Shown: one piece after another, positions 36,001-39,000 of the stretch | Layout of the letters: every line of letters begins with the position of its first letter | Numbering within the stretch: the stretch's first letter is position 1 | Source of the DNA: Escherichia coli | GTDB lineage: Bacteria; Pseudomonadota; Gammaproteobacteria; Enterobacterales; Enterobacteriaceae | Strand: one strand, 5' to 3' | Length of the DNA stretch: 64,000 nt | Assembly (NCBI RefSeq): GCF_003991155.1 | Contig: NZ_CP031293.1 | Position numbers: made by a program

Positions 36001-39000
36001 CGCCTTGTTTATCGGAGTGCCTTGCCAGAAATTGACTGACCAGAATTCCCATAATAGCGCTACCGGTGAAGAAAAAACCTACCATTATAGGACGGGCTTT
36101 CAGTTCATCTGCGAGGAATATACTTAGGGTGGGAGTCTGGAGAGCGCCCGCAATACCCGTCAGAAAGGCGACAAGTAAAAATGCCGCGGCAGTGAGATCA
36201 AGTATTTTTGATGGAGTAGTAGCCGTTTTTTGCATTCTTCTGAATCACCGGGCGACAAAATATAACTGAGTTACAAATAAGTACCAGTCGAATGAGTATT
36301 GTATTAAGAATTTTTGAGTATCGCTGATACAACCAGAAAGCAATGCTAGCGCAATATTATAGGGCCAGCAATTGAGATTATTAGCAAAAGCATGTTAAGA
36401 GTTAATCACCGAATTTATATATTAATTATAGTAAGACAATGAGCTATTTTTGATAGTAAAAATAAAACAAATTTATTTGATATATTAAATGAACAAATTA
36501 ATCTTGATGGCAGTCTGATTATTGGTGAAGTTTACAGGTCAGTTTTTTTCGCCAGCGGTTAAAGGAATAGAATCGTCGTATAAAAAAAGGGTGTTCTGGG
36601 GCGTGTAAAACAACATCTTCACCTTAATGGCGATACAGTTGGCTGAGAGTCAGCAGGGGGGCAAATCACCTGCAAATAAACACGGCGCATGCTGGCGCGA
36701 ATATCGCGGATGCGTTCGAGGACAGAAGAACCGACAGGCGGATTCTTCAGCCGCTCATCGTCCATCACAAAACCTTTGACCAGGTATTCCTGAAGCCGAT
36801 TGAATATTGAGCAGTAGAAAATATCTGGATTGACAGTATTACAAGGGATTGGAGAACGTCAGAAGAGGCATTTTGGCGGAAGATCACAGGAGTCGAATAT
36901 GAGAGTTAATGTTTTGATTTTAAATGATTAATACGTGTTGGATAAATGAGTAACCCCCATAAGAACCCCCAAATGACTTTGCGTAAGGGAATGAGGCTAA
37001 AATACACAATCGAATCAATTCTTAGAGCTTTATTATGAAGGTAACACTCCCGGATAGTGTTTCGCAATAATCTCATTAAGTCTGTCAACCAGTTCTGGTT
37101 TCCTGAACGTGATGTGCGCGGAGCCCTTCTTAAAGTATCTGATGCTGAACATCTCATCTTCATAGTCCTCTTTACCCTGAACTGAGTGGATGTGATCATC
37201 CAGACGAATAGTGATGTTTTCCCGGTTGTCGGGGATCGGTTTGCCGCTGAACAGGTGTAGCATTCTTTCCAGATCGGCAAGTCGATCTGCCTGTTGCCCG
37301 GTGATAAGATGAAACCCCCACCGGTCCCACCTCACCAGGTTGTTGACGATAATTTTACTGCCAAATTTACAGGGCGAGTTGGTTTTGTAATCCCAGCCCA
37401 GTCCTCTGAAAACGTTGATCACCCCTCGCTCAAACACCTCATCCTTATTCTGGTGCAGTTGTTCAAATGTGCTCAGAATGTTCGCTTCATTGATTTTCGG
37501 AAAATTATCATATTCCAGTGACCGGTACCATGTATCACGGGCCTGTGCATCCATTAAGGAAAGCATCCCTGAACGTTGCATCAAGTTTCGCCAGATTTCA
37601 CGGTCAAGGTTCCGGGTGATGGCTTTCATTGCGGTTTCCGGTTTTTCCATCAGCCAGCAACCGCAGCGAAAATCCTGTTTCATCGCCCAGTCCAGGGCGG
37701 TTTTACCTCCAATACTTTCTGTCAGTACTGAGATTTCTGCCAGTTGCCGGATAAGTGTGTCGATTTGCAGCAGCGCACTCTTTCGTACAGCCAGAATGTG
37801 GCGGATACTGGTTGAGCAGATAACGTCCGTATGCCCGTTGACCAGTTCCGGGCGGGAGATTGTGATATCTGACATCATCGTTTTTCCTTTTGGTTTATAA
37901 ACGAAAACGCCAGCCCTGTTCAGGCTGGCGTCAGTGGAATGAAGTCTGGTGAGTGAGATTCACCGGTTCTGGTGCAGAAGCTGCAGTTGGCGCAGGGTAT
38001 GGATATCCTCCCTCGCCTGTTCAATACAGGACAACAGTGCTGCCGAATCCGTTTTATCCTCATTGTTGTCAAAGATAATTCCGGATTCGCAGTCGATATT
38101 GTCCTGCAGCCACGCAATCAGAATATCCAGTGCGGTTTCCGTGGTTAATGATTTCATGTTGCTCCTGGTTACCAGTTGAAAGTGGGTAAACCCGGCAGGC
38201 ATTCAGCGCTGGCATCCAGATGAATGAGACTGACGCCATAACGTCGGGTAAGTGTGATAACCAGACGACGGAACGTTTTTGACAGCCCCAGGCGTTTAAG
38301 CCGCAGAACCGGATATGACCACGCATCGGTACGTAACAGATATCCGCTACCTGTGAAATGAATCCATTCTGATTCACCGAAGTCACTGGTCTGGTGTGAC
38401 AGCGAGTACAGCCAGGCGTTGTCCGTTTCCGTGATATGTGCGGTACTGCAGCGTATACCGGTCAGGGCAGCAAATGGTGGCATGCAGTCTGTTGAGGCCC
38501 GGTCAGATGCATCAACAACACGAAGGGAGTGGCCATTATCACAGACCACGTTAATCAGTTCAGCGAGATTAACACCATCGACGTCAACGACAATGCGTCC
38601 CATGTTCAGTGCCTGCACGTTAATGCTGTCGGCTTCCAGCGTCAGGGCCAGTTTCATTGTTTCGCCTCCGGATGTTTCCCCTGGGTAATGTTATTTACCG
38701 TTCTGTAGTTATCGCGGGTCATCAGGCCGGTTGCCCTGCGAGCCCGGAGAATATCAATACTGTTTATTAACTGAGAGCGGGTACAGGCGCTGAATCCCGG
38801 CTGGTCGGTACGTATCAGTGCGTATTTTTCAACGAGAAAGTTCACCGCATCACACAGTGAAATGCCAGCTTCAATATGCTGCTCAATCACACGTTCATCG
38901 GCGAACGGTGTGTCATTCAGTGTGAGGCCATAGTGCTGGTCCAGCAACCGGGACAGCAGTGTCTGCCAGATGGTGACGGGAGACGGGCAGCGAGATACCT

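Follow-up and report, generated by a model that had tools for sequence, protein, structure and literature searches.

Introduction

Promoter elements of the MxiE-box family overlap the −35 region and need an AraC-type activator together with a translocator chaperone. Chromosomal boxes of this family are required for MxiE/IpgC-dependent expression in Shigella, and MxiE plus IpgC can activate them in Escherichia coli K-12 (PMC9769918; PMC9241512). Table S2 of PMC9769918 gives the MxiE-dependent boxes of yccE (TGAGCGATTTTTGATAG), yfdF (TGAGCGTTTTTTGATAG) and yjgL (AGAGCGTTTTTTGATAT); those of yccE and yfdF were validated by mutation in that study, those of icaR/yjgL and icaT/yfdF were validated in PMC9241512, and a review adds yhaBC to the box-bearing genes (PMC10383432). 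Here we describe a copy of this box that has no gene behind it. It lies at 36439–36456 (+ strand) of a 64,000-nucleotide (nt) stretch of E. coli DNA (RefSeq assembly GCF_003991155.1, contig NZ_CP031293.1; hereafter the window), in the spacer between setC and selC, and we call it copy E to distinguish it from four further copies in the window, A–D. Copy E is a genuine copy of the box that is probably dead by now, and we consider it likely that it is the fossil of a chaperone-dependent AraC-activator promoter (MxiE/InvF type), left by a lost member of the regulon.

Results

The original prediction, drawn from the window's sequence alone, had placed an 18-nt promoter motif (ATGAGCTATTTTTGATAG) at this site, and the sequence match bears out both its position and its strand. 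The 18-mer is identical in K-12. Calling it a promoter motif is reasonable, as the motif is a known MxiE-box-type element (PMC9769918, PMC9241512). With up to two mismatches to the consensus ATGAGCGATTTTTGATAG allowed, the window holds five copies, compared with 0.01 in shuffled sequences. Copies A (827–844, +) and B (2423–2440, +) carry the consensus itself, which is the yccE box, and stand upstream of genes for a 431-amino-acid (aa) protein of unassigned function (1045–2340, +) and its 500-aa paralogue (2556–4058, +), respectively. Copy C (27181–27198, −), which is the yfdF box, stands upstream of eilA (HilA-like regulator, 25409–27106), and copy D (32452–32469, −) upstream of eicA (SicA/IpgC-type chaperone, 31894–32391). 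Copy E, one base away from A and B, is the only one of the five that does not stand before a gene.

We aligned the eight gene-linked boxes, that is window copies A–D and four K-12 promoters, at the box. All eight follow the pattern (A/G)(T/A)GAGCG(A/T)(T/A)TTTTGATA(G/T) within unrelated flanks, and therefore behave as selected binding sites rather than as pieces of duplicated segments. A distant blastn search found no paralogous copy of the copy E region elsewhere in E. coli. With a local G+C content of 17% (36401–36500), copy E could be imagined as a chance match in AT-rich DNA, but this reading is barely credible because copy E resembles the family consensus far too closely. Against it also stand the excess of motif copies over the shuffles, a rough estimate of ~1e-6 for a match with at most one mismatch in an AT-rich stretch of ~370 nt, and the presence of an orthologous copy in Escherichia albertii. 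A HilA-box (direct repeat TGA-N8-TGA for EilA) was set aside as the identity of the motif after the exact match to validated MxiE-dependent boxes had been found; EilA may also use these promoters.

Upon close examination of the box in its 17-bp MxiE register (36440–36456, +), we noticed that position 6 of copy E is a T (at 36445). This position is occupied by G in all eight gene-linked E. coli boxes and in 18/18 published boxes, and T occurs in copy E only. Across a hand-picked set of 12 E. coli and two E. albertii genomes, the T is found in every one of the aligned E. coli sequences, one of which has an extra T in the T-run, and a K-12-based query with G restored at this position had no perfect match among 3662 genomes. 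Published mutations define the importance of the base: G6C alone lowers ipaH9.8 promoter activity six-fold, almost abolishing it (PMC3299695), and G6C combined with T10A abolishes activation of yccE and yfdF (PMC9769918). The MxiE box has nine strictly conserved positions (G1, G6, T7–T10, T12, A14 and A16), and copy E (TGAGCTATTTTTGATAG) does not carry the full set. It keeps T8–T10, T12, A14 and A16; its G1>T and T7>A changes are also present in the working yccE box, and G6>T is its own. Measured against the E. coli chromosomal variant pattern, copy E matches at 17 of 18 positions and fails at the invariant G. By descent it thus belongs to the box family, but one essential base no longer fits the sequence by which the family is defined, and we infer that T6 would inactivate it for the E. 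coli activator.

The −10 element may point in the same direction. All eight gene-linked copies have a −10-like hexamer whose last base lies 24–26 nt beyond the box, a spacing that suits a box at −49 to −33. Copy E has TTTGAT at this spacing, which lacks the A at hexamer position 2. Judged from the sequence, its best −10-like hexamer is TATATT (36481–36486, +), which starts 24 nt after the box, about 4–5 nt too far; in the box-aligned sequences this is the only good hexamer, and it ends at +30. The −10 element of copy E therefore appears to be misplaced.

As the original prediction had noted, the only open reading frame (ORF) downstream of copy E is one of nine codons (MNKLILMAV, ATGAACAAATTAATCTTGATGGCAGTCTGA; 36489–36518, +). 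Beyond it all three forward frames are closed. No ORF longer than nine codons exists between copy E and a rhuM fragment that follows. The mini-ORF is not conserved: its start codon is changed from ATG to ATT in 2/12 E. coli genomes, it acquires a premature stop in 1/12 and two missense changes in 1/12, so that it is destroyed in three of the 12, and it is absent in E. albertii. Members of the family control genes of type III secretion, whether for a substrate, a chaperone or a regulator; copy E has none of these behind it. The rhuM fragment (36634–36795, −) is a 160-nt pseudogene remnant convergent with the box that covers residues 121–185 of the 345-aa RhuM, as identified by tblastn (E=4e-22), the Pfam family Virulence_RhuM and its RefSeq pseudogene annotation. 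The 177 nt of non-coding sequence between box and fragment (36457–36633, +) change at a pseudogene-like rate. Mean pairwise diversity among 10 genomes (the two most divergent E. coli, selected by their identity in this same downstream stretch, are excluded) is 0.031 here, compared with 0.038 in the rhuM remnant, 0.019 at setC third codon positions and 0.014 in the setC-proximal part of the spacer.

The idea that copy E drives a small RNA, raised in the original prediction, finds no support in these features. Downstream of the box there is no terminator on the forward strand and no Rfam match at E<=1, the predicted fold is not unusual (z=0.17), and the 177 nt vary as a pseudogene does. The stretch shows neither the combination of promoter, terminator and conserved sequence or structure of a small RNA gene nor the ORF conservation of a small protein gene. 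The same observations bear on whether copy E still works as an activator-dependent promoter and directs non-coding or antisense transcription toward selC and the attachment site of the island. Its near-perfect box, the TATATT 24 nt downstream (the eilA box has the same hexamer at the same distance) and the retention of the box core in E. albertii would all fit. We nevertheless regard it as very unlikely, given T at the essential position 6, the missing RNA features, the variable downstream sequence and an E. albertii copy in which two deletions interrupt the box and no −10 is conserved. The K-12 counterpart argues against it as well: the selC/setC spacer is listed among 78 'promoter islands' (entry 3834632_331, 331 bp; Table 1 of PMC3661553), as an AT-rich region to which H-NS binds in every data set compared (column 'A') and which is reported to be silent, without normal transcripts (PMC3661553). 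From the sequence features together, we expect that no transcript starts at copy E and that it most likely drives nothing today.

The comparison with E. albertii bears on the age of the box. Its SetC orthologue is 90% identical (protein search), and local alignment of the setC–rhuM spacer reveals an orthologous site, AATG-GCGATTTTTGAT-GA, which has TATATTAAT upstream and AAATAA downstream in common with copy E. The site lies 237 nt from setC, compared with 203 nt in E. coli, and 220 nt from a degenerate selC attachment (att) remnant, with all frames closed and no ORF. It keeps G6 and has lost single nucleotides at two places, among them the essential A16. Because the E. albertii orthologue keeps the G, the ancestral box was canonical; it was already geneless or became so independently, and the mutations by which it decayed differ between the two species. 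The box before eicA serves as a control. There, a 24-nt block that includes the box (L099:9144–9160 in our E. albertii locus) is identical between E. coli and E. albertii, whereas the rest of the spacer is only about half identical, and a −10-like GATGGTGAA is conserved ~20 nt downstream of the box in both species. A scan based on SetC in one genome per species returned only SetA/SetB paralogues (<=72% identity) without a box. A metagenome contig (L103) with an 81% SetC next to fruB was considered as a carrier of an ancestral divergent gene and discarded as a setB/setC chimeric or recombinant assembly.

These comparisons suggest a sequence of events. The common ancestor of E. coli and E. albertii would have carried the canonical ATGAGCGATTTTTGATAG in AT-rich DNA between setC and selC, pointing away from setC and toward a gene located between the box and the convergent rhuM. 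That gene would then have been lost by deletion, in the same kind of event that cut rhuM down to its 160-nt fragment. The unused site would have drifted, with E. coli fixing G>T at position 6 and E. albertii acquiring its two single-base deletions. That a gene once followed copy E is what we infer from this arrangement, and of the proposals in the original prediction, a deleted member of the regulon is the one best supported: the box is near-consensus and geneless, an essential position is changed, and the E. albertii orthologue decayed differently.

The position of copy E relative to the neighboring island calls for a different picture from that of the original prediction, which had located the box at the core/island junction. 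The window contains, in order, ilvBN, two unknown genes, uhpABCT, adeD/adeQ, nepI, the eip locus (iatC/air, eilA, eipD, eipC, eipB and eicA), yicS, nlpA, yicL, setC, the spacer and the island. The sugar efflux transporter gene setC (35051–36235, −) is divergent from copy E, with its start codon 203 nt from the box. The window holds no tRNA gene, and a 24-nt repeat of the 3' end of selC (tRNA-Sec; attR) at 36874–36897 (−) marks the true junction. Homology to K-12 stops exactly at 36897, which puts the junction at 36897/36898. The CP4-type island (DUF4942, CbtA/CbeA, RadC and related genes) thus begins at 36898, 441 nt beyond copy E, and the repeat is reached 417 nt beyond the box. The box thus lies inside the conserved, ordinary selC–setC spacer (36236–36897). 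Of 5426 complete E. coli genomes, 3671 carry the part of the spacer that bears the motif, and K-12 is one of them.

The original prediction had also proposed that copy E could be what remained of an earlier cargo gene after the arriving island had displaced it, a reading for which the short distance to the island speaks. The comparison with island-free genomes that this proposal called for refutes it. K-12 has an intact selC with no island, and it shares the box and the whole sequence from the box to selC, as do seven other sampled island-free genomes; the CP4-type island therefore displaced nothing. In addition, the island sits beyond a clean 24-nt att repeat. We give the displacement reading next to no weight, and the adjacent island is irrelevant to copy E.

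Other observations show how selC is arranged elsewhere. In a B2-type genome, the corresponding locus (L002) lacks the box, has a 165-aa hypothetical gene in place of setC, and carries a full-length rhuM adjoining selC together with a degenerate att repeat and a second rhuM fragment (L002:2040–2300 and 2397–3434), an arrangement that indicates repeated island turnover at selC. In strain 2014C-3011 (L003:2085–3291; about 36725 onward in the window), homology to the other genomes ends inside the rhuM remnant, and its methylation-associated defence (MADS) island starts there and not at the selC att repeat.

The boxes that still precede genes allow us to ask to which regulon this variant belongs. 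An E. coli-type MxiE box stands directly upstream of both eicA and eilA in the eip locus. This placement, together with the perfect conservation of the eicA box and its −10-like block in E. albertii, suggests that the box belongs to the ETT2/eip regulon and that the variant has its home in the ETT2/eip system rather than in a pINV ancestor. The papers searched contained no link between eicA or eilA and this box. The activator pair that has been tried is EivF+YgeG, which failed to act on icaR/icaT, and not EivF+EicA (PMC9241512). The region of copy E is found in 3671 genomes, yccE in 4365 and eicA in 740 (of 5426 complete E. coli genomes); copy E, whose box the B2-type locus lacks, fits the distribution of the E. 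coli box variant, which occurs across the non-B2 phylogroups but not in B2, and independently of pINV and of the eip locus.

Several features of the wider window accompany these boxes. The 431-aa and 500-aa paralogues between ilvN and uhpA are 28% identical, and each stands behind a canonical box. Neither has a Pfam or NCBIfam family; a search with the 431-aa protein found homologues in Escherichia only, all 'hypothetical proteins'. Both are candidate secretion substrates. YccE was considered as a relative of the 431-aa protein and proved unrelated. The closest complete genome, strain 2016C-3878, differs from the window at only three sites over 40.8 kb, and two of these inactivate genes of the eip locus: a G>A change at 18490 converts a TGG codon of iatC/air to TGA, and a 1-nt deletion in a T7 run (about 31070–31075) shifts the frame of eipB. 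These two changes could reflect real attrition or a homopolymer or sequence error. In E. albertii (L099:7475–9731), yicL is followed directly by yicS and an eicA-like gene, without the nlpA that separates yicL from yicS in E. coli.

Discussion

We favor the interpretation that copy E is a dead promoter whose gene is gone, and several points weigh against it. The lost gene is hypothetical, as we found no genome in which a gene still follows the box. The published changes at position 6 are G6C, made in Shigella with MxiE, whereas the change in copy E is G6T. Apart from this base the box is perfect, and it is invariant in 10/10 unbiased genomes; its core is identical between E. coli and E. albertii at 11 of 12 positions while the flanks align poorly. 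Such preservation could reflect residual constraint, with a rough p of ~0.04–0.15 under neutrality, and leaves some room for a residual function, either as a weak promoter or as a binding site that might affect setC or H-NS silencing. Finally, that the K-12 promoter island takes in the box, covering about 36251–36581 of the window, is our assumption, based on our own conversion of selC coordinates in U00096.2.

Retention of copy E as a protein-binding site that is not a promoter, whether an activator or H-NS site affecting the divergent setC or a decoy, would make sense of two of our measurements: the downstream stretch varies more than either the box or the setC-proximal spacer, and the distance between box and setC is similar in the two species. 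It would also agree with the finding that MxiE acts largely by relief of H-NS silencing (PMC9769918). The site is oriented away from setC, however, known boxes of the family overlap the −35 of the gene that they drive, and the box is damaged in both species. Moreover, 18 invariant bases among 10 genomes are not significant (expected probability ~0.14 at the downstream rate). We consider this reading unlikely. More remote still is a scenario in which T6 would be tolerated by the E. coli activator, which might be EivF paired with the chaperone EicA, so that the box fires toward selC when ETT2/eip is active and yields a transcript antisense across the tRNA-Sec attachment site. If this were true, the antisense transcript could influence island integration or excision, or the expression of selC.

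If copy E is a regulatory fossil, as we propose, more E. coli genes formerly carried this secretion-activator box than do so today, and the box is older than the divergence of E. coli and E. albertii. Copy E would also provide a natural negative control, in that the decayed box differs between the two species and the working eicA box is identical. In Shigella, three other AT-rich K-12 orphan genes, yjiC, yjbM and yhiS, depend on MxiE with no box reported for them (PMC9769918 Table S1); diverged copies of this element may be present there. The list of MxiE-dependent genes in Shigella has nothing at setC/selC, a list that covers annotated genes only (PMC9769918).

Comparison with known systems

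Among described elements, copy E most resembles those of yccE, icaT (yfdF), icaR (yjgL) and yhaBC. It has the same 17–18-nt sequence with one base different, lies in the same kind of AT-rich, H-NS-bound context and, like them, is frequent among non-B2 E. coli but absent from a B2 genome. Unlike them, it is geneless, has T for G at position 6 and appears to lack a −10 at the family spacing, and it does not appear in the box lists of PMC9241512, PMC9769918 and PMC10383432. The Shigella MxiE box GTATCGTTTTTTTAnAG (Mavris 2002; Bongrand 2012, PMC3299695) agrees with copy E at positions 3, 5, 8–12, 14, 16 and 17, whereas the E. coli variant has TGAG for GTAT at positions 1–4 and G for T at position 13; copy E differs further by the loss of G6. 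The 'promoter islands' of K-12 are a different kind of entity, a statistical concept built on dense promoter-like signals, in which the specific activator box was not identified. The InvF–SicA-dependent promoters of Salmonella (sicA, sopB and sopE) resemble copy D in regulatory logic: copy D places its box upstream of the sicA homologue eicA, with translocator genes following, and copy E differs from these promoters in having no such operon behind it.
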